IMG/VR virus record: IMGVR_UViG_3300027958_000007
Source: a virus
Reading direction: 5' to 3' (one strand)
DNA length: 35,263 nucleotides
In this document: piece by piece, positions 14,085-34,455 of the stretch
Position numbering within the stretch: the stretch's first letter is position 1
How the letters are laid out: the number at the start of each line of letters is the position of its first letter
Position numbers and translations under genes: made by a program
The notes under the pieces: model-generated
Told to the model about the DNA's origin: nothing
The model's input: the letters and a program-made list of their open reading frames with translations, nothing else
Database searches by the model: none

Positions 14085-14600
14085 TTAAGCTGCTGAATCT
14101 CCCACGATACCTAGGTAATTTCCATTCGATTTGGTTGTGTCGATCAAAGCCTCAAATTCCACCTCCATAATTCTCTCGTCTTCTACGGTGTAATTTAATT
14201 CAACTTCGCCGGTCACAACTGCCTTGTAAACAACAACATCCTCATCCCGATTTGATGCGTCGTTTACCAATGGATGCAATACCAAAACCGCTGCCTTTGA
14301 CGCGAGTCTTGCGCCTGCGTTACTTCCGAGAGTCACTCGCTTGTCGCCTGACCCTGCTAGCGTTCCAAGTGGCATAACCTTTGCAAGGTTCGCAACCTGA
14401 GTCTCTGCTAGCGGCACCTTGATGGTCATTTTTTCACCAACCAAAGCTTTGTCAACGCAAGTATTGCCATACTGATCAACTACGATATCGGAATATTCCG
14501 GTGCATAGTTTACAGTGCAACCGCCTTTTGTGTGACCCAGCTCAGTGCCGCCAAAGGTGATTTTGCATGCTCCAATTTTCACATTTGCTACATCGCTCAT
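14085..14600 (-). CDS. Major tail (tube) protein
   Basis: 171 aa, directly upstream of the chaperone genes, with beta-rich composition. Confidence 0.65.
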   Translation of the reverse strand: MSDVANVKIGACKITFGGTELGHTKGGCTVNYAPEYSDIVVDQYGNTCVDKALVGEKMTIKVPLAETQVANLAKVMPLGTLAGSGDKRVTLGSNAGARLASKAAVLVLHPLVNDASNRDEDVVVYKAVVTGEVELNYTVEDERIMEVEFEALIDTTKSNGNYLGIVGDSAA

Positions 14601-15040
14601 ATTTTATCACCTCCTTTCTGTTTTAGTCCCATGTGCAATGTTGCGTGGCAACTCCTGCAAAGGACTGCTAGGTTATTTAAACAATCATTTGGCTGTCCTC
14701 CCTTTTCAAGGCAATTTCTCCCAATATTATCTATATGATGTATGCACAAATCTTTACTCCCACCACACTTTTCGCACTTCTTCCCTGCCCGCTCTACCGC
14801 TTTTATGGCGTTCTCCCCATTTCTATACACTTGGTTCCAAGAAATGCCATGAAATTCTTTAAATTTTTTTCGCGACTCTCTTAAATAGACTGCCGCTGGG
14901 TTATTTGACAAAATTATGCTCTCTCTTTTTTTAGCGCTATATTTTCTTTGCCTAGCTGCGCATTTTTTACGCAACTCAATTTTGTTTTTATAATAATACT
15001 CTCTGCATATAGCGTTATGCTCTTTTTTAGTTCTTTTCAT
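14597..15040 (-). CDS. HNH endonuclease
   Basis: 147 aa. CEKCGG...LCIHHID...NNLAVLCRSCHATLH matches the HNH/zinc-finger pattern. 4-nt overlap with the major tail gene. Confidence 0.85.
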   Translation of the reverse strand: MKRTKKEHNAICREYYYKNKIELRKKCAARQRKYSAKKRESIILSNNPAAVYLRESRKKFKEFHGISWNQVYRNGENAIKAVERAGKKCEKCGGSKDLCIHHIDNIGRNCLEKGGQPNDCLNNLAVLCRSCHATLHMGLKQKGGDKI

Positions 15041-16570: not shown

Positions 16571-18133
16571 TTAGCCCAATTGAAAACTTAGCGAAATTAT
16601 CATACCTTTGGCCTTTGTGGTCTGAACGGCGTCCACATCAATAGCAATCAGGTCGTTGGTGGCCACATCGTCGTGTGTGGTATCAATAACCACCGGAGTT
16701 GTCGCCGTATCAGTTCCTGCCTCGGTACTATCCCAAGTCAATTTTGTACTCAACATATCCACGCTATCAGTTACATTCCTAATCTGTACATCCATCGTTC
16801 CAGTTATTCCCGCGGTTATCGCTCGGCCGTGTACGCCAACCAAATTCATCCCATTCAAAGCCGACGGGACTACAAAGTAGCATTTTCCGTCGCCGGTAGC
16901 CACATCGGTCGCAAAATCAAACACAATCATCTGCACGGTCTTAATCCCGAAGTTAGAACCCGCCAAAGCGTCCGGAGAAATCGCCCGCGCTTCATCCGTT
17001 CCCGTGTTGACTTCGCTTGCGATAGCAATTTCGACAATTCCCTCGACTGTCGTGCTTGCGCTTGGCTCATCTCCGCTATTCGTTCCGCTTGTGTTCCCTA
17101 TAACAACCTTTTCCGCGTCTGTTACATAATTGTCATCCGCGCTAAGTGCCGGGGCAAATGCGGTCGTGTCCTCTGCTGCTGCCGATCCCAATGCTGGCTT
17201 ATTCAAAATTTGAGCATCACCACTGACAGCGTCCCAATCTGCCTGCACATTTACCTCAGCCCCAGCGGCGATGCCATCAAGTTTGTTTTTATCTCCGGCC
17301 ACAAAAGACGCCGCCTCACTTGCTGCAAAAACCGGGTCGGTTTCCGCCGGGATATCCCCAACCGTGATAAATTCCGCATCATTATTCAAATCGCTCAAAT
17401 TATGGCCGTGTGCAACTGCCGCATACACTAAGTCGTGATTGTGATCGATTGCCGCATAGTCCAAGTCATGATTGTGAGCGATTGCGGCGTAAACTAGATC
17501 GTGATTGTGCGCGACAAGCGCGTATTCGGAGTGAGTATGGAATATTTCTGCATAAACCAAATCATGATTATGATCTGATGCCGCTTTTCCCGCTAAAACC
17601 AAGGTCAAATCTTCTTGATCTGCCAATGTTCCCGTAATATTCCCCCATTCTGCGCCGGATATTTTTGTATTGATCAAATCAATTAAATCGGTCTGCTCAT
17701 AAATATCGCCAAGAATATGCCCCCATTCTGTGGATGTAAAGACCTCAAGGAATGTCCGAACCTTGAAAGTAAAATTTATACTAAAAAGATGACGGTTGCT
17801 TTCGTCTTGCCCAAGTTGTGCTGGGAGTCCATTTGCAAAAACTTCCATCACATCAACACCGTCACTTTCCAAAACCAAATCATCACCTTGTCCATGCAAT
17901 AAATCATAAATATCGTTTGCCTTTGCCAACCCGGTCGAAAATACTGCGTCCCGGACTGAGATTTGCACCGCGATATCTTGGAGCGGTAAATATCTGTCTG
18001 GGGTTCCACCAGTCTGCGTGATCATCACGACATTATTCACATTGTCAGGCATCCGGCTAATAAAAATATCAACGGACTTGGTTCCGATGCCTTGATTTTG
18101 CAAATAGGTCGCTATGTTTCTCAGCAATATCAT
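16571..18133 (-). CDS. Fusion of a tail-terminator / minor-capsid-like N-domain to a fiber-like region
   Basis: 520 aa. Residues 1-128 resemble the minor capsid 2 / tail completion family (LQNQGIGTKSVDIFISRMPD). Then come EWGxIxG repeats, six HxH repeats, a KLDGIAAGAEVN fiber motif and a C-terminal beta-rich domain. Confidence 0.6.
   Translation of the reverse strand: MILLRNIATYLQNQGIGTKSVDIFISRMPDNVNNVVMITQTGGTPDRYLPLQDIAVQISVRDAVFSTGLAKANDIYDLLHGQGDDLVLESDGVDVMEVFANGLPAQLGQDESNRHLFSINFTFKVRTFLEVFTSTEWGHILGDIYEQTDLIDLINTKISGAEWGNITGTLADQEDLTLVLAGKAASDHNHDLVYAEIFHTHSEYALVAHNHDLVYAAIAHNHDLDYAAIDHNHDLVYAAVAHGHNLSDLNNDAEFITVGDIPAETDPVFAASEAASFVAGDKNKLDGIAAGAEVNVQADWDAVSGDAQILNKPALGSAAAEDTTAFAPALSADDNYVTDAEKVVIGNTSGTNSGDEPSASTTVEGIVEIAIASEVNTGTDEARAISPDALAGSNFGIKTVQMIVFDFATDVATGDGKCYFVVPSALNGMNLVGVHGRAITAGITGTMDVQIRNVTDSVDMLSTKLTWDSTEAGTDTATTPVVIDTTHDDVATNDLIAIDVDAVQTTKAKGMIISLSFQLG
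17402..17572 (-). repeat. Coding tandem repeat of about 33 bp (11 aa) encoding six HxH motifs
   Basis: DHNHDLVYAEIFHTHSEYALVAHNHDLVYAAIAHNHDLDYAAIDHNHDLVYAAVAHGHN. The repeated gtgattgtg.. units are visible in the DNA. Confidence 0.85.
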
Positions 18134-19609: not shown

Positions 19610-20638
19610 TTAAAATCTGTTTTTTTCTTGTTCGTTGTCGTGATAGCACATTTGCGCGACCAACTCATCAAAGGAATATTCCGACTTCCAATTCAGCTTT
19701 GTTTTCGCTTTGCTAGGATCACCAATCAGCAAGTCAACTTCGGCCGGACGGTAGAACTCTTTATTTATCTTTATTATAATCTTATTTGTGATTTTATCAA
19801 TACCGACTTCCTCCAATCCTGACCCAGCCCAGCCAATTTCCATCCCAAAGTGCGTTGCGGCCTTTTCGACAAATTCCCGGATAGTCCTAGTCTCGCCAGT
19901 CGCGATGACATAATCATCCGGCTGATCTTGTTGCAACATCAGCCACATCGCCATGACATAATCCCGAGCATGCCCCCAATCTCGTTTTGCGTCTAGGTTC
20001 CCCAGCTCCAAAACCTCCTGTTTTCCAGCCTTGATCCTCGCCAGCGCTTTGGTTATTTTACGAGTCACGAAGTTGGTGCCACGATGCGGGCTTTCGTGAT
20101 TAAAAAGGATGCCGCAAGATGCGTGCATGCCATAACTTTCCCGATAGTTCACGGTGATCCAATGGCCGAAAAGCTTGGCGACTCCATACGGTGATCGGGG
20201 ATGAAATGGCGTGGTTTCTTTCTGCGGAATTTCTTGGACTGCACCAAACATCTCGCTGGTTGACGCTTGGTAAAATCTGCATGTCGGCTTGTATTTTCTG
20301 ATAGCATCCAATAATCGCAAAACACCCAAAGCGTTTACATTCGCCGTATATTCCGGAATTTGGAAGCTGGCACCAACATGGCTTTGTGCAGCTAGATTAT
20401 AGACTTCGTCCGGCATAATCTCTCCAATCAATTTGTCAATCAAAGATGTGTCGCCCATTTCCCCATAATGCAATTTTACCGGGGCGCTAAATCTTGCCTC
20501 GGCTTCTTGCAAGCTCTCACCGCTGTTTGATCGGTGGATGCCGTGGACTTCATAGCCCATATTGGCCAGCAATTCGACCAAATAATAAGAGTCCTGCCCA
20601 CCACATCCGGTCACCAACGCTACTTTTCTTTTTTCCAT
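19610..20638 (-). CDS. gmd: GDP-mannose 4,6-dehydratase
   Basis: 342 aa. ALVTGCGGQDSYYL Rossmann motif, SPYGVAKLFGHW (YxxxK), FNHESPHRG and RDWGHARDYV. Confidence 0.9.
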   Translation of the reverse strand: MEKRKVALVTGCGGQDSYYLVELLANMGYEVHGIHRSNSGESLQEAEARFSAPVKLHYGEMGDTSLIDKLIGEIMPDEVYNLAAQSHVGASFQIPEYTANVNALGVLRLLDAIRKYKPTCRFYQASTSEMFGAVQEIPQKETTPFHPRSPYGVAKLFGHWITVNYRESYGMHASCGILFNHESPHRGTNFVTRKITKALARIKAGKQEVLELGNLDAKRDWGHARDYVMAMWLMLQQDQPDDYVIATGETRTIREFVEKAATHFGMEIGWAGSGLEEVGIDKITNKIIIKINKEFYRPAEVDLLIGDPSKAKTKLNWKSEYSFDELVAQMCYHDNEQEKNRF

Positions 20639-20796
20639 TTTATTATTATTTTATTGATTATTGCTTTTGTTGTTTGTAATATTGTGCGACACTTGAAAGC
20701 TGAACAGCAATGATGGTCTCGGTCTTTCAGCTTCCAAAAGTGCGGGTTTCCACAACTTTCTTTTCTCCGGCAATTATTGCAATTATATTTTTTCAT
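20620..20796 (-). CDS. Possible small Cys/His-rich protein (58 aa)
   Basis: MKKYNCNNCRRKESCGNPHFWKLKDRDHHCCSAFKC... It bridges the 144-bp gap between GT2 and gmd and overlaps both neighbours. This is the trimmed version of track ORF 20620..20922. Confidence 0.3.
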   Translation of the reverse strand: MKKYNCNNCRRKESCGNPHFWKLKDRDHHCCSAFKCRTILQTTKAIINKIIIKWKKEK

Positions 20797-21580
20797 TCCA
20801 TTTGATGGCGACAAACTCTTCCGGGTGTTCGCCATAAAAATGTTTAACTCCCTCGGTTGCGCTGGGGTCGTCATCCGTTTGGCTTTCATCCCAAGGCGTA
20901 ATTGCATCGCCGATCTCCTCACCGTTGCGCTGGCTATAAAATTTCAACTTTGCCTTTATCTGATCGGATGGCTTGATACAAGCGTAATGATAATATGGTA
21001 TTTTTGTCACGATGGTCTGCCCGACGCTGGTGATAAGCAAACCATTTGGCAATTCAACTGGGAAATCATGCGCGCCCCACCTTATCCCCGGCAAATTTTT
21101 AAAAAGTCGCACCGGTTCAGTTTCCCAAATTCCACCAAAGCGGACAAAGTCGGAGGTTTTCCAAAAATGGATCGGCTTGACTGTGAAAGCGTTGGCGTTT
21201 GGGTTCGCCTCGGCGCAATCTATCAAGTCTCGCAAATCCTTGTATTTCCATACTTCATCGCCATCAATTGGCAAAATATAATCAACGCCATCCCGGGCGA
21301 TATTTAGCGCAATGTTTTGAACTTCACTTTTTCCGCTAGAAAACCCGAATTGATTAAATAATATTTTGTGGCCAGCGGGATGGTTCTGCATAATTTCCCT
21401 AATTTTTTGGGCAGTTCCATCGATACTAAGCCCATCCGGTGTGCATTGGTGTTCATTGTGTTTGCAACAACTTTCAACGATAGCAATTTTTTCGATTTCC
21501 GGATGCCTGAGTAAAGAACGCAAGCATGCCCCGATAAATATTTCCTCATTCAAAACGCAAAGCGTGACGCCAATTTTCAT
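20783..21580 (-). CDS. Family 2 glycosyltransferase (GT-A fold)
   Basis: 265 aa. N-terminal IGVTLCVLNEE... and the DxD motif ILPIDGDEVW. Confidence 0.8.
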   Translation of the reverse strand: MKIGVTLCVLNEEIFIGACLRSLLRHPEIEKIAIVESCCKHNEHQCTPDGLSIDGTAQKIREIMQNHPAGHKILFNQFGFSSGKSEVQNIALNIARDGVDYILPIDGDEVWKYKDLRDLIDCAEANPNANAFTVKPIHFWKTSDFVRFGGIWETEPVRLFKNLPGIRWGAHDFPVELPNGLLITSVGQTIVTKIPYYHYACIKPSDQIKAKLKFYSQRNGEEIGDAITPWDESQTDDDPSATEGVKHFYGEHPEEFVAIKWNEKI

Positions 21581-21581
21581 T

Positions 21582-22742
21582 CTATTTTTGCATTAAGGAT
21601 TTGATAATATTTGCCACCCCCTGAGCGGTGTATTTTGCTTGCCAGCGTTTTGCATGGCGCGCCAGCTTCATCTCACGAATCATCCGGGTGCCTTGTCCCA
21701 ACTTGAATTTGTTATATTCAGCCCGCATCGCCTTTCGGACGCTTGCGATGGTTGGTTGAAATTGCGTGCCTAAATCAAGGCCAGCAAATTCCACATTGTC
21801 GTATCTCGGCTTTATACCTACGCAATCCAGCCGTTCCATCAAACTTTCATCAAAATATTCGTGCATGCCAGTGTGATCCGGGACAATTATTGGCATGCCG
21901 GTGGCCATGCACTCAAGGGGAGTCAATCCAAAACCTTCACCTCGAGATGGGAAAACAAAGCAATCCGATTTTTGCATCATATCGCGCAATTCATCCAGCG
22001 TGTAAATCTTTTTAATGACTTCTACTTTGGGATATTCTGAAAGCGATGTTGTTTTTTCCACGGTAGTCTTAAAAACTAGGCGCACTGGCTCATCCGCACC
22101 AAACTCATCATCAAATGCGTTTAGTACGATATCCCAGCCTTTACGGTATTTAAAAGCGTCGAAATGCAAGAATGTAAAAATATGATCATCCGGGCGGATC
22201 CTGTCTAATAAATAAAATTTGTCCGGCTCATAGCCAAGTGGGACAACATCACATTCCAAACCAAATTGGTTCTTTAAAATATTGGAGCAAAACCGAGACG
22301 GTACAATCCGGCGATCAGCTTTCGCCCACCACTCACCCCAAAACTCCGGATATTTTGTGGTCTCAAACATCGAAAAGATAATATTTTTTGGTGCCTTTGA
22401 ATAGACGAGTGTGTTTGGCAAATGGTAATTCAAACAAATTTCTTGACCCTCATATTCGTCATTTAAAAAAACACCATGCTTTTCAATATCTTTTTTTAGT
22501 AATAATGCGCTGGCCGAATATCCGTCATAAGCAAACATATTTGATGAGATAAAATGCACATTGATGAAATCCCTCAACCCCTTTTTTTTGGCTTCTAGCG
22601 CTCTTCGTTCCTCTTGCGCTATAAAAATCCTTTCTCTCGAATCAAGCCGCTTATACCCTTTCCGCCTTAACTCAAAGAATTGCGCGATGTTAATGTTTTT
22701 TTTCTCGATGTTTCCGTTGGGAGCTTTCAAGCACATTTCCAT
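21582..22742 (-). CDS. GT1/GT4-type glycosyltransferase (GT-B fold)
   Basis: 386 aa. FVFPSRGEGFGLTPLECMATGMPIIV (EX7E motif). Confidence 0.8.
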   Translation of the reverse strand: MEMCLKAPNGNIEKKNINIAQFFELRRKGYKRLDSRERIFIAQEERRALEAKKKGLRDFINVHFISSNMFAYDGYSASALLLKKDIEKHGVFLNDEYEGQEICLNYHLPNTLVYSKAPKNIIFSMFETTKYPEFWGEWWAKADRRIVPSRFCSNILKNQFGLECDVVPLGYEPDKFYLLDRIRPDDHIFTFLHFDAFKYRKGWDIVLNAFDDEFGADEPVRLVFKTTVEKTTSLSEYPKVEVIKKIYTLDELRDMMQKSDCFVFPSRGEGFGLTPLECMATGMPIIVPDHTGMHEYFDESLMERLDCVGIKPRYDNVEFAGLDLGTQFQPTIASVRKAMRAEYNKFKLGQGTRMIREMKLARHAKRWQAKYTAQGVANIIKSLMQK

Positions 22743-22803
22743 CTTTATTTTATTATAGTTTAGTTATGTTTTTATTTTATCACAAAAGGGGATTGACGCA
22801 ACT

Positions 22804-22833
22804 AAAAAAGGCACCCACGAGGATGCCTTTTTT
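22804..22833 (-). terminator. Intrinsic terminator downstream of the major capsid gene (probably leaky)
   Basis: GGCA(CC)/(GG)aTGCC stem flanked by A6 and T6. On the minus RNA the stem is followed by UUUUUU, 16 nt after the MCP stop. Confidence 0.65.
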
Positions 22834-22848
22834 ATATTCAATTTTCGA

Positions 22849-23751
22849 CTAGCTCTTCAAAATGACACAAAGGTCATCGCGCATGATCGCTACACCAAAC
22901 AAAGTGTCGAGTGTGATTTGATCAGCTAGGTTGGCAGCATCGTATGAATAAATCACGCGAATTATAATGCCATCCTTTTCAACATATCCAACCTTAACAC
23001 CGGGAGCCATAGGTTTTGCCAAGGCTCGAGTTGCCAACACCATAGCGTTTCTTTGGAAAGCCATGTTGTAAGTTGTTGCTGGGCTGCCATCTTCAACCGG
23101 AAAAATAGACTCCATAGTTCTGAAACCATAGATTTTTCCAAGTTCACCATCTTGCACAACTGCGCTTGATCCATACTTCTCAGTCGAAACAAATACGGCT
23201 TCCTCGACAATGTTATTCACATTTTCCGGAGTAATATACAGATATCTCTCCATTCGAGGTGCGCGACGGGTGGTCAAATCTGCGCGGGCTTGTTTAACTA
23301 GGTCGCCAGTCACCGCAACGCCTTGAGATCCAAGGGTGTGAGTGAAAGTCAACGCTAGGGTAGCCAATGCGGTTTCAATCTGCTCTGCCAAGGCGATCAT
23401 ACCATCTGCAATATACCCATCTTGGATAACTTGCTCACCGGTTGCCAACGTCTTGACGATATCTTCAACAGCAAAGGTAACTTCCCAGTGCTGATCGAGT
23501 GTCACATCGACTGTGGTCGCTGTTGGGTCTTGAACGGTTACTTTGGTATTCTGCAATTTTCTGTTTGCGGTTACTGCACCACGAACAGGAACTTTGATTA
23601 CATCGCCGATTTTTTGGCTGGTATAATCTGCGTCACGCGCTACATTTTTGGCAAGGTGTAGCTCGGCCTCTAAAGCTCCAAGAGCTTTGTTTGCGACAAT
23701 CTCGGGTACAAATGCACCACCCTTTGTCATGCCAATAGTTACTTCCGGCAT
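22849..23751 (-). CDS. Major capsid protein (HK97 fold, P22-coat/gp5-like pattern)
   Basis: 300 aa, directly after the scaffold gene. N-terminal pattern FVPEIVANKALGALEAELHLAKNVARD. Confidence 0.8.
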   Translation of the reverse strand: MPEVTIGMTKGGAFVPEIVANKALGALEAELHLAKNVARDADYTSQKIGDVIKVPVRGAVTANRKLQNTKVTVQDPTATTVDVTLDQHWEVTFAVEDIVKTLATGEQVIQDGYIADGMIALAEQIETALATLALTFTHTLGSQGVAVTGDLVKQARADLTTRRAPRMERYLYITPENVNNIVEEAVFVSTEKYGSSAVVQDGELGKIYGFRTMESIFPVEDGSPATTYNMAFQRNAMVLATRALAKPMAPGVKVGYVEKDGIIIRVIYSYDAANLADQITLDTLFGVAIMRDDLCVILKS

Positions 23752-23789: not shown

Positions 23790-24482
23790 TTATGCTGGGT
23801 CGATATCATCGATGATTTTCCCCTCTTTGTACGCTTGCAAAATTTCTGCCTCATTCGCTTTGAAAAAGTCATGCTTTTGCAATTCTGAACGCTTAAAGGA
23901 TCTCACCGCCGCATTGCCTCCGTCTGGGGCGCCACCTCCACCGGCATTTCCGATATTGGCTGGCGTTGGTGCTGGGCTACCAAATAAATATGCTTTTTCA
24001 GTTTTCAATGCCTCAACGATTACCTTGACACTTGCCGCATCCACATCGCCATTCTCTGACAATTGGATTTTACTCATGTCGGTCAACTTTGTTACAGCGT
24101 CCAAATCGATAGCGCCTAATTTCATGGCCTCAGAAATCAAAGCGTTGGTTTTCACCGATGACTCAAATTTCTGCTTATAGGTCATGGCCTCTTCTTCTTT
24201 CGCTTTGGCCAGTTGTTCAAACTCACCTTTCTTTTTCATGTCAGCTTCTTTGCGGGTCGCTTCCTCAGCTTCACGCGCTGCGTTGGCTGCGGTATGCTCT
24301 CGCACTTTTGCTGCGACTACTTCGTAACTGTCATGGCGGATATATTTCACTCCGTCTTTTTCAATTACACCATCATGCGATGGGGTTGGCGCTGGTGCCG
24401 GTGCTGGCGTTGCCGCTGGCGCCGGAGTTCCGGCCGTTGGTGTTTCTGTCGCTGGTGCTGGTGCTGGGGTGATTTCTGGCAT
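23790..24482 (-). CDS. Capsid scaffolding protein with a Pro/Ala/Thr-rich N-terminus
   Basis: 230 aa. Charged helical core (EAEEATRKEADMKKKGEFEQLAKAKEEE), positioned upstream of MCP. Confidence 0.7.
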   Translation of the reverse strand: MPEITPAPAPATETPTAGTPAPAATPAPAPAPTPSHDGVIEKDGVKYIRHDSYEVVAAKVREHTAANAAREAEEATRKEADMKKKGEFEQLAKAKEEEAMTYKQKFESSVKTNALISEAMKLGAIDLDAVTKLTDMSKIQLSENGDVDAASVKVIVEALKTEKAYLFGSPAPTPANIGNAGGGGAPDGGNAAVRSFKRSELQKHDFFKANEAEILQAYKEGKIIDDIDPA

Positions 24483-24538
24483 ATTGTTTTTGGTTTAAAA
24501 GTTATATCGGATTTTTTCGCAACCCGCTTCGTGCCTAA

Positions 24539-24566
24539 ATTATAACACTATTTTTTTTTGACGCAA
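24539..24566 (-). promoter_or_regulatory. Sigma70-type promoter with an extended -10, upstream of scaffold/MCP
   Basis: Minus strand: TTGCGT (24566-24561), 16-nt spacer, TGT-TATAAT (-10 at 24544-24539), about 57 nt before the ATG at 24482. Confidence 0.6.
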
Positions 24567-24590
24567 ATAAAAAAATAAATTTTGTCAATA

Positions 24591-24628
24591 ACTTTTTTGG
24601 AAAAACTTTTTTGGAAAAACTTTTTGAG
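24591..24628. repeat. 14-bp tandem repeat ACTTTTTTGGAAAA, 2.7 copies
   Basis: Exact copies at 24591-24604 and 24605-24618, with a partial copy at 24619-24628. Confidence 0.9.
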
Positions 24629-24636
24629 TTGTGAGC

Positions 24637-24693
24637 GGGTAGGGACGGGGTGGGTCGCACGCGTAAGGGTGGGGGCTAGGGGTGGGGACAGGG
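24637..24693 (+). other. Two tandem canonical G-quadruplex motifs. The complementary strand is a C-rich, G-poor tract on the minus-strand RNA.
   Basis: Motif 1: GGGtaGGGacGGGGtGGG (24637-24654). Motif 2: GGGtGGGGGctaGGGGtGGGGacaGGG (24667-24693). Confidence 0.8.
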
Positions 24694-24722
24694 CGATCGC
24701 TATCGACCCCTATCCCCCGAAT

Positions 24723-33107: not shown

Positions 33108-33818
33108 TTATTTTTTAGCCATCAATCGTCCAATAGGGACTACCGCATCGGGGTTAAGTGTAAATTCTGTAATGGTGAAATTTTTGTTTGCCAATAAGTC
33201 TCGCAACTTTTCCGCCCAGCCAAAATCAATGTGCCACTCCATCACAATTTTATCAATTTTAGCCCATTGCTCATCCGTGAAGCTTGCTAGGATGTGATAT
33301 TCGCTGCCCTCGCAATCAACCTTTAAAAAATCAATTTTATCCACATTCTCGAATATTGCTTCGGCTGGCCATGTTTCAATTTTCTCAACATTTTCACCAA
33401 ATGGATTTTCGCTTACCGAATAGCCTCCGGTGTTTAGTTGGCCTGTTGCCCCGTGATCAATAAAATACTCTCCTGCGGTTCCGGTGAGCGCTTTATTATA
33501 TAGCCGTATTCCACCCCGATCTTTTGCGTTCGCTCGCGTATTCATTTCGAGCAAATCAAAATTATCCTTGTCCGGCTCATACGCGTTTACGTCTGCCCCC
33601 TGCATTATCGCCCACACCATGAATGATCCGATGTGCGCACCAATATCGACGACAACATCGCCCGGTTTGATCTCATACCCGGCACCGGAATAAAAATGTT
33701 GGTTCCAAATTTCCTGCACGATATTCGGGTCATGGGTTCCGGGTCTGACATTAAAGTCCGCTCTGATTTCTTGTCCGCTAAATAATTTGTCAACGGCTGT
33801 AAAAATTTCTGTTTGCAT
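33108..33818 (-). CDS. FkbM-family SAM-dependent methyltransferase
   Basis: 236 aa. VVDIGAHIGSFMVWAIMQGADVNAYEPDKDNFDLLEMN and DFLKVDCEGSEYHIL are typical of Methyltransf_21. Confidence 0.8.
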   Translation of the reverse strand: MQTEIFTAVDKLFSGQEIRADFNVRPGTHDPNIVQEIWNQHFYSGAGYEIKPGDVVVDIGAHIGSFMVWAIMQGADVNAYEPDKDNFDLLEMNTRANAKDRGGIRLYNKALTGTAGEYFIDHGATGQLNTGGYSVSENPFGENVEKIETWPAEAIFENVDKIDFLKVDCEGSEYHILASFTDEQWAKIDKIVMEWHIDFGWAEKLRDLLANKNFTITEFTLNPDAVVPIGRLMAKK

Positions 33819-34044: not shown

Positions 34045-34455
34045 TTATTTTCTAAAAACTACAACCATACTCGGAAATGGGGCAGAATTTTTACTATCAC
34101 CGAATTTTAATCGTCCTTTTAAAAATCTTATTTCTGTCTTTCCATAAATATAATCATGGAACCATCGCGTATCAGTCCGGGCGGGCAATAACATCACGCA
34201 AAAATCGCTTTCACTCGCTTTTTTAACCCATTCGCCAATCTTTCTGCCATACGGCGGATTGCACCAACATAAAGCCCCCCCCCAATCCTTTTTTAATCCA
34301 TCATCTTGCTCGGTGAAATAGCGGGCGCACTTCGCATTTTCTGCGGTAGCACACACATCAAGGTTAAACCCAAACTCCTTGTTCAATTTATCAAAGAAGT
34401 CTTGCGGAGTAGCCCACATATCTGTCTTACTGGAAAACATTAAATCGTTATTCAT
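34045..34455 (-). CDS. Phage-type DNA N6-adenine methyltransferase (Dam_N6_MTase family)
   Basis: 136 aa. MWATPQDFFDKLNKEFGFNLDVCA..., CNPPYG (NPPY motif) and LLPARTDTRWFH. Confidence 0.85.
   Translation of the reverse strand: MNNDLMFSSKTDMWATPQDFFDKLNKEFGFNLDVCATAENAKCARYFTEQDDGLKKDWGGALCWCNPPYGRKIGEWVKKASESDFCVMLLPARTDTRWFHDYIYGKTEIRFLKGRLKFGDSKNSAPFPSMVVVFRK

Follow-up and report, generated by a model that had tools for sequence, protein, structure and literature searches.

A G-run/C-run block upstream of the scaffold gene of an uncultivated siphovirus and the repeat element from which it appears to derive

The DNA analyzed here (35,263 nt; hereinafter the window) is the essentially complete genome of an uncultivated SPP1/Mu-like siphovirus. 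All its genes, including every long ORF, are on the minus strand, in keeping with the original prediction that transcription runs on that strand throughout. In that direction, the large terminase (29343-30917) comes first and is followed by the portal (27867-29312) and a MuF-like minor head protein (26140-27864), after which three small ORFs and then a gap of ~780 nt precede the genes for the head scaffolding protein (23790-24482; phrog_194, 1.6e-13; PF06810 in relatives) and the major capsid protein (22849-23751). Genes for glycosyltransferases and a GDP-mannose 4,6-dehydratase, along with those for head-tail, tail and replication functions, lie 3' of the capsid gene. The DNA of the window gave no near match in cultured phage, E. 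coli or other collections, and the protein matches to its genes are remote; a contig from an independent sample carries a 100% identical copy of the phage. Neither tRNA nor tmRNA genes were found in the window.

Several features of the genome outside the gap deserve separate mention. Directly 3' of the major capsid gene, at 22800-22830, lies a textbook bidirectional intrinsic terminator (AAAAAAGGCAUCC...GGGUGCCUUUUUU), which in sequence is of another type, unrelated to that of the G-run hairpins described below. The regions 19610-22742 and 33108-33818 hold two glycosyltransferases and the GDP-mannose 4,6-dehydratase, directly 3' of the capsid gene, and, elsewhere, an FkbM-type methyltransferase; relatives encode fused glycosyltransferases of ~1000 aa at the equivalent place 3' of the capsid gene, and this gene set suggests glycosylation of the virion (capsid). 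A 520-aa ORF (16571-18133) has a tail-terminator domain at residues 10-125 only and may be a fusion or an insertion, the tail terminator of relatives being a separate protein of ~129-131 aa followed by small genes. A weak HNH-like ORF occupies 14597-15040. The tetranucleotide GATC does not occur in ~9 kb of several relatives (0 observed against ~32 expected; L012, L015, L026, L027), and has a normal frequency in the lineage of the window, which encodes a Dam methyltransferase (34045-34455). Hints as to the host conflict: the sole capsid-protein relative in 185,579 reference genomes (35% identity) is on an 8-kb contig binned in a Candidatus Paceibacterota MAG (L017, JBBDOU010000003.1), whereas the remote capsid matches among cultured phages are exclusively to actinophages, and distant relatives sharing tail genes (L108, L116) encode Lsr2-like proteins. 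One of two scans of genome contigs for capsid relatives returned no match.

Within the gap, 24637-24693 holds the sole two canonical G-quadruplex (G4) motifs of the whole window (at least four runs of at least G3, loops of 1-7 nt, both strands scanned). Both are on the plus strand: motif 1, GGGTAGGGACGGGGTGGG, spans 24637-24654, and motif 2, GGGTGGGGGCTAGGGGTGGGG(ACAGGG), spans 24667-24687/24693, inside a 13-nt tandem repeat of 2.2 copies (TAAGGGTGGGG / TAGGGGTGGGG; 24664-24693). As had been predicted, their loops are 1-3 nt long and a 12-nt spacer separates them. The 57 nt of the block contain nine G3+ runs, whereas 200 simulated first-order Markov genomes reached a maximum of 4-7 such runs within 60 nt, none of them attaining nine, with 0.35 G4 motifs expected per simulated genome. 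Likewise, the G4Hunter score peaks at 2.48 in the block, and one other region only reaches an absolute value of 1.5. The G4-prone block is real and far from chance. Its background had been described as AT-rich, which is an overstatement, since the genome has 43% G+C and is AT-rich only moderately. The corresponding sense RNA bears out the claim that it is C-rich and G-poor, with 35 C and 7 G over 24637-24693; the best 78-nt stretch (24610-24687) has 39 C and 8 G, a C/G ratio of 4.9 against a genome median of 0.78, and the highest absolute C content of the genome. The block is untranslated, with no credible ORF there, and in composition it matches the C-rich, G-poor RNA of at least ~60-80 nt that characterizes a Rho utilization (rut) site.

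Three other origins or roles for the block were rejected. A small RNA read from the plus strand was dismissed, there being no plausible plus-strand promoter for one in the window. A mobile or host-derived block was discarded because its exact 21-mer is absent from IMG/VR and, in metagenomes, is confined to unrelated telomere-like arrays. A cos site or genome end was likewise rejected: TerL is of the Mu/SPP1 type, and the capsid gene takes scattered positions across the contigs of relatives, as is expected of circularly permuted headful genomes.

Read 5' to 3' on the sense (minus) strand, the gap presents, in order, a hairpin at 25182-25159, a hairpin that we call HP1, a CCUCUC segment followed by U7, an AT palindrome, a second hairpin, HP2, a C-rich tail, a 14-nt A/T repeat and the scaffold promoter. 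The first of these is a GGGGAU...AUCCCC hairpin (GGGGAUUUCACGAUAAAAAUCCCC; 25159-25182) in the same intergenic stretch as the block. Between it and HP1, at 24923-25122, are two short ORFs of 23 and 43 aa with strongly hydrophobic cores, which could be small membrane proteins in a gap otherwise called intergenic. In HP1 (24790-24853; z = -3.5), which is homologous to an element in L005, L006 and L008, GAGAGGGGAUUGUG pairs with CGCAAUCCCC around a small enclosed hairpin, GGCUUAUUUGAGCC (24818-24805). The CCUCUC with its U7 (24763-24775) can pair with GAGAGG at 24853-24848 and could thereby close HP1 as an intrinsic-terminator-like structure. This closure is not in the minimum free energy (MFE) structure and the terminator scanner made no call, because 14 nt separate the U7 from the inner stem of HP1. 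HP2 has no U-run. The AT palindrome (AATAGATATATCTATT; 24723-24738) lies between HP1 and HP2.

HP2 (24671-24718) is formed by the G-arm GGGGGAUAGGGGU (24718-24706) and the C-arm ACCCCUAGCCCCC (24683-24671), an inverted repeat for which pairing at 12 of 13 positions had been claimed and which indeed proved 92% complementary, with a loop of 22 nt. That loop contains the palindrome GCGATCGC (24693-24700), known as HIP1; a cyanobacterial origin suggested by it was rejected, as neither the window nor its relatives are enriched in HIP1. Both HP1 and HP2 appear in the MFE and the centroid structures of the sense RNA, and the 331-nt region as a whole has z = -3.35. The sense copy of motif 1, the C-run segment CCCACCCCGUCCCUACCC, is largely unpaired in this fold and falls in a 46-nt C-rich tail (24625-24670; 24 C, 6 G) predicted to be unpaired; since the 13 nt at 24671-24683 are paired in HP2, only this tail would be free for candidate Rho loading. 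When G4 formation was included in the energy model, with RNA parameters, motif 1 folded as a G4 (-19.4 kcal/mol) and motif 2 was outcompeted by HP2 (-14.5 against -26.3 kcal/mol). Hence, of the choice between G4 and hairpin that the original prediction envisaged, it holds that both structures are possible and that motif 1 is predicted to fold as a G4, but motif 2 would lose to the hairpin.

A 14-nt tandem repeat, AACTTTTTTGGAAA (24590-24625; 2.6 copies), separates the block from the promoter of the scaffold operon and forms A/T tracts that are phased. This promoter (24539-24588, minus strand) has a far-upstream TTGACA (24588-24583), a -35 element TTGCGT (24566-24561) and an extended -10 element TGTTATAAT (24547-24539); a consensus scanner missed it because the -35 element matches the consensus at 3 of 6 positions. 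Comparison of the promoter/leader regions (window 24483-24588; L002 5150-5262; L006 3090-3213; L014 3160-3266) showed its two-part layout to be conserved: TTGACA, ~21 nt, TTGCnn, 16-17 nt, TGnTATAAT. The block was said to lie about 95-155 nt upstream of the expected start, and we place it at ~105-161 nt, close to that value; its position upstream of the scaffold promoter can now be described more fully as an untranslated one between the terminator-like HP1 with its U7 (24853-24763) and the promoter (24588-24539). In the scaffold 5' UTR, a stretch …ACGnACCrCGAyAnGGGCGATAAA… is conserved in distant relatives and may serve the scaffold mRNA as a leader element.

We then turned to relatives fetched through the capsid protein. 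The closest of these (L002, L018 and L005; capsid protein 81-86% identical) share the segment 24836-24707 of the window (68% over 131 nt), which includes the small hairpin as well as one C-arm and one G-arm. Window 24600-24910 has its positional homolog in L005 4695-4817, with sequence homology over part of it. The 95-nt C-run block itself, however, is missing from all three, and is seen solely in the 100% identical copy, so that the tract lacks the conservation on which its original interpretation had been made to depend. The sense-strand sequence equivalent to the C-rich tract is G-rich in these closest relatives. Where the window has the block, between the G-arm and the promoter, L002, L005 and L018 have a conserved 77-aa CxxC (zinc-ribbon) ORF and L008 a HIT-like ORF, and L006 and L014 have nothing; this variable content, together with the absence from the closest relatives, marks the block as lineage-specific and the spot as an insertion hotspot. 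A family of small Cys-rich proteins with multiple CxxC motifs is found just upstream of, or inside, the variable gap (window 25579-25806; L005 4362-4590 and 4898-5131; L006 2450-2683); the 77-aa protein of L002, L005 and L018 is one of its members and sits exactly where the window has the block. The block is built from the 13-nt tandem duplication and an inverted duplication of the resident G-arm. To judge by these alignments, it is a recent expansion, private to this phage lineage, that derives from the G-run/C-run hairpin element of the relatives.

Such a structure might also be a neutral slippage product, generated by tandem and snap-back duplication at a recombination or insertion hotspot that tolerates variable content. 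The adjacent 13-nt and 14-nt tandem repeats, the nearly perfect inverted arms, the changing occupants of the same spot, and the confinement of the block to one lineage are all consistent with this. We nonetheless regard it as distinctly unlikely: purifying selection clearly acts on the G/C-run arms of the junction across the clade, the contig from the independent sample has the block in identical form, and no G-arm of the window lacks a matching C-arm, a pattern that random slippage alone would not be expected to yield.

The selection in question concerns an element of the entire clade. In ~15 non-redundant relatives, with 41-86% identity in the capsid protein, G4+/C4+ runs cluster most densely, out of the whole 9-13-kb locus, at this junction, 1000-1470 nt upstream of the capsid gene; the element occupies the gap just upstream of the scaffold gene, as does its counterpart in the window. 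Its arms are shared, with the G-run GGTAGGGGAGTGGT and the complementary C-run CCACTCCCCTACC as the recurring forms, or, stated as a vocabulary, (G)GTAGGGGAGT(G/A)GT and its complement CCACTCCCCTACC. The 7-mers GGGGAGT/ACTCCCC illustrate their distribution: 31 of 80 copies are in the 6.3% of the sequence outside ORFs, against ~5 expected (~six-fold enriched). Every relative has inverted repeats of 9-20 nt made of a C-arm and a G-arm, with C-arms complementary to one or several G-arms, and the flanks of the arms co-vary, as GGGGAGT/ACTCCCC in L006, GGGGATAGCG/CGCTATCCCC in L008 and GGGGATTG/CAATCCCC in the window. G-arm/C-arm stems followed by U-runs make up textbook terminators in L131, L108, L133 and L028, and T-runs are within ~40 nt of 24-44% of motif copies as against 9% of controls.

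Of 16 relatives, in comparison, L005 and L027 have a canonical G4 motif at the junction on the coding strand, L012 and L026 have one on the template strand, and the other 12 have none; this frequency and even split by strand mean that a strand-specific G4 or rut function is not conserved. What is conserved, on the sequences compared, is complementarity together with the arm sequence, and neither a template-strand G4 nor a sense C-rich tract. This bears directly on the proposal that the tandem template-strand G4s form in vivo and act as a transcriptional roadblock or as a G4/hairpin switch on the scaffold promoter. Such a role draws on the two canonical short-loop motifs with their G4Hunter score of 2.48, on the predicted folding of motif 1 when single-stranded, and on the recurrence of G4-capable runs at the junction in the four relatives just named. 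We give it a very slight chance, considering that scatter among relatives, the loss of motif 2 to HP2, and the fact that in duplex DNA each G-run faces a C-run and the G-arms have intramolecular C partners as well.

Similar considerations apply to the idea that the main function of the C-rich untranslated RNA is that of a rut site ending read-through before the scaffold promoter. Beyond the composition of the tract, its untranslated state and the predicted unpaired tail, this reading can appeal to sense-strand C-run arrays of 30-58 nt that come right after the upstream stop codon in L012, L026, L027, L106 and L115. Those arrays, though, precede complementary G-arms able to sequester them; moreover, the tract is absent from the closest relatives, whose equivalent sense sequence is G-rich, 13 nt of it are taken up in HP2, and a terminator-like hairpin already lies upstream. 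As a main function, Rho loading accordingly appears improbable to us.

A single conserved RNA fold for the element was also rejected. In the best-aligned subgroup, RNAalifold gave a consensus structure of -18.7 kcal/mol with almost no covariation (2 of 26 pairs compensatory), MFE over 17 loci showed no consistent preference for the sense strand, and the folds between motif copies differ by family. An nhmmer profile of one subgroup barely detected the other subgroups, its hits falling on either strand. Membership in a known RNA family was rejected too: Rfam 15 gave no match at gathering score in the window or 15 relatives, and at E-values up to 10 returned only eukaryotic miRNA/snoRNA noise. 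The block is thus neither a conserved G4 element nor a member of an Rfam family. Of the original account, the observations hold, apart from the AT-richness, and the interpretation holds in part.

Taking these data together, we tentatively favor, at somewhat less than an even chance, a reading in which this lineage alone has expanded a hairpin-based stop/insulator/3'-end-protection module where the packaging and scaffold operons meet. The G-run/C-run repeat element of the relatives sits between the packaging/minor-head genes and the strong scaffold-capsid promoter, and the block would be a recently expanded copy of it; in the sense transcript the block supplies the 3' arm of the 13-bp GC hairpin HP2 and the 46-nt unpaired C-rich tail, and it lies directly 3' of HP1 and its U7. 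HP1 and HP2 would jointly provide the stop, the insulator and the protection of the 3' end, so shielding the scaffold promoter from transcription that runs on out of the packaging operon. Back-up Rho-dependent termination might be added by the C-rich tail if the host has Rho, and the capacity of the template strand for G4s would be a by-product of stacked G-run units. Against the hairpin module stand the lack of a U-run after HP2, the distance of the U7 from the inner HP1 stem with the resulting lack of a terminator call, the near absence of covariation and the lack of a sense-strand folding preference. The clean terminator of a different type after the capsid gene further indicates that the phage does not need G-run hairpins for termination. 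Finally, the 14-nt arm is conserved far beyond what a stem needs, which points to sequence-specific recognition and also counts against this reading.

The reach of that conservation became apparent beyond the clade. A 14-15-nt consensus, (c/g)GGTAGGGGAGTGGT, is nearly invariant in phage contigs of 31-61% G+C with very different gene contexts, which include the region upstream of terS, the neighborhood of an Lsr2-like gene, and sites ahead of replication genes or inside tail modules (IMG/VR contigs L104-L247; e.g., L131 4840-4990, L106 5350-5600, L108 8740-8900 and, on the minus strand, L133 3140-3210). Sense copies typically number two per locus, and their spacing peaks at 53-57 nt (17 of 40 intervals), or about five helical turns; the sequence between the two copies is neither conserved nor endowed with a common fold. 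Such pairs usually have complementary CCACTCCCC(TACC) arms on their upstream side and U-runs in the vicinity, and often they are accompanied by a further shared motif, TTTTGAGGCTAA. By chance alone, the collection should contain hundreds of single exact 14-mer matches, and the accompanying features were observed in only ~41 of 112 matches. We found no protein consistently adjacent to the motif, the structural genes being common to subsets of loci only. The motif as a transcript start was rejected, in view of promoters just upstream of 3 of 81 clusters against 1.8% of controls, that is, without enrichment. Literature searches by sequence string yielded nothing relevant. In the window itself, four of the five best position weight matrix (PWM) hits are at 24636-24800; these units are weak relative to the consensus (8.7-11.6 of 28.5 bits) and are all on the antisense strand.

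Some contigs carry the motif in arrays. Tandem arrays of GGGTAGGGGAGT units are found at contig ends in L104, L126 and L132, those of L104 (a 13.6-kb contig) being at both ends in inverted orientation; L123 has at least seven copies with an 18-nt period, and L120 three copies with an 11-nt period. All of these could be terminal repeats or assembly breaks.

The G-run units may alternatively be sites for a sequence-specific DNA- or RNA-binding protein, with the block of the window as a degenerate antisense array; a late-transcription regulator and a processive antitermination factor acting at long-operon starts are candidate readers. A consensus kept almost letter for letter over so wide a range of G+C would be explained in this way, as would the paired sense copies at 53-57 nt with unconserved sequence in between, the 11- and 18-nt periods of the arrays in L120 and L123, the existence of inverted copies, and the concentration of the top PWM hits of the window at 24636-24800. 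That no candidate binding protein is consistently adjacent, that the window copies are degenerate and antisense, that promoters are not enriched upstream of the motif, and that chance 14-mer matches are so numerous while the accompanying features occur in a part of the matches make us consider binding sites of this kind possible, if somewhat unlikely. A more specific version would make the block a degenerate offshoot of a widespread, undescribed siphovirus cis-element read by a dedicated trans factor, which we deem unlikely. The cis-element would consist of (c/g)GGTAGGGGAGTGGT, usually as two sense copies ~54 nt apart, with complementary C-arms and U-runs at the heads of long operons, and would be read, for example, within a new terminator/antiterminator or ops/nut-like system, rather than be a plain hairpin.

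The block itself is of modest consequence; it illustrates how local duplication of hairpin arms can create a striking G4/rut-like signature, with the lesson that a G4 or Rho mechanism should be put forward only after conservation has been examined. The GGTAGGGGAGTGGT motif family is the more intriguing lead: a short G-rich signal with complementary C-arms, it is found at a fixed operon junction throughout the clade and recurs in many unrelated uncultivated phages, with no Rfam match or known reader. Should it prove regulatory, it would open a way into late-gene control in phages that have neither a host nor genetics to work with.

Several known systems offer points of comparison. The units of the block are TAGGG-like pentamers and in this recall telomere-type (TAGGG/TTAGGG)n G4 repeats; its exact 21-mer occurs elsewhere only in GC-rich telomere-like arrays of metagenome contigs unrelated to the phage, a match that is a low-complexity coincidence. 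Like rut sites, the block RNA is long, untranslated, C-rich and G-poor; unlike them, its tract is partly sequestered in a hairpin, is not conserved in relatives and is accompanied by complementary G-arms. Cis-acting signals of processive antitermination include lambda nut, HK022 put and the RfaH ops element GGCGGTAGnnTG. With these the phage element has in common a short conserved sense signal near terminators at the head of a long operon, and the canonical motif shares CGGTAG with ops. It differs in that no protein of the NusG, N or Q type was identified, the motif does not follow closely on a recognizable promoter, and the copies in the window are degenerate and antisense; accordingly, we treat the resemblance to ops/nut as a lead only.

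REP/BIME elements are GTAG-headed, imperfect, intergenic palindromes that stabilize mRNA and attenuate transcription, REPs being species-specific chromosomal repeats present in hundreds of copies. The phage element likewise consists of short GC-rich imperfect palindromes starting with GTAG (GTAGGGGAGT...ACTCCCCTAC), and its copies are single or clustered, in both orientations, intergenic and variable in number. In contrast to REPs, each phage genome has one cluster, in a syntenic position, with nearly the same consensus over a contig G+C range of 31-61%; no transposase of the RAYT type was seen with it. Phage late terminator-promoter junctions and intrinsic terminators, for their part, provide the parallel of GC-rich inverted repeats in an untranslated gap between an operon and a strong promoter, to which the U7 after the HP1/CCUCUC stem and the arm stems with U-runs of L131, L108, L133 and L028 can be added. 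The differences from them are that HP2 and the C-run tail have no U-run, that the arm sequence is conserved beyond the needs of a stem, that extra unpaired arm copies lie downstream, and that the phage's own post-capsid terminator is of an unrelated sequence type. By analogy, then, the junction resembles a terminator-promoter boundary and, in its repeats, REP-type palindromes.
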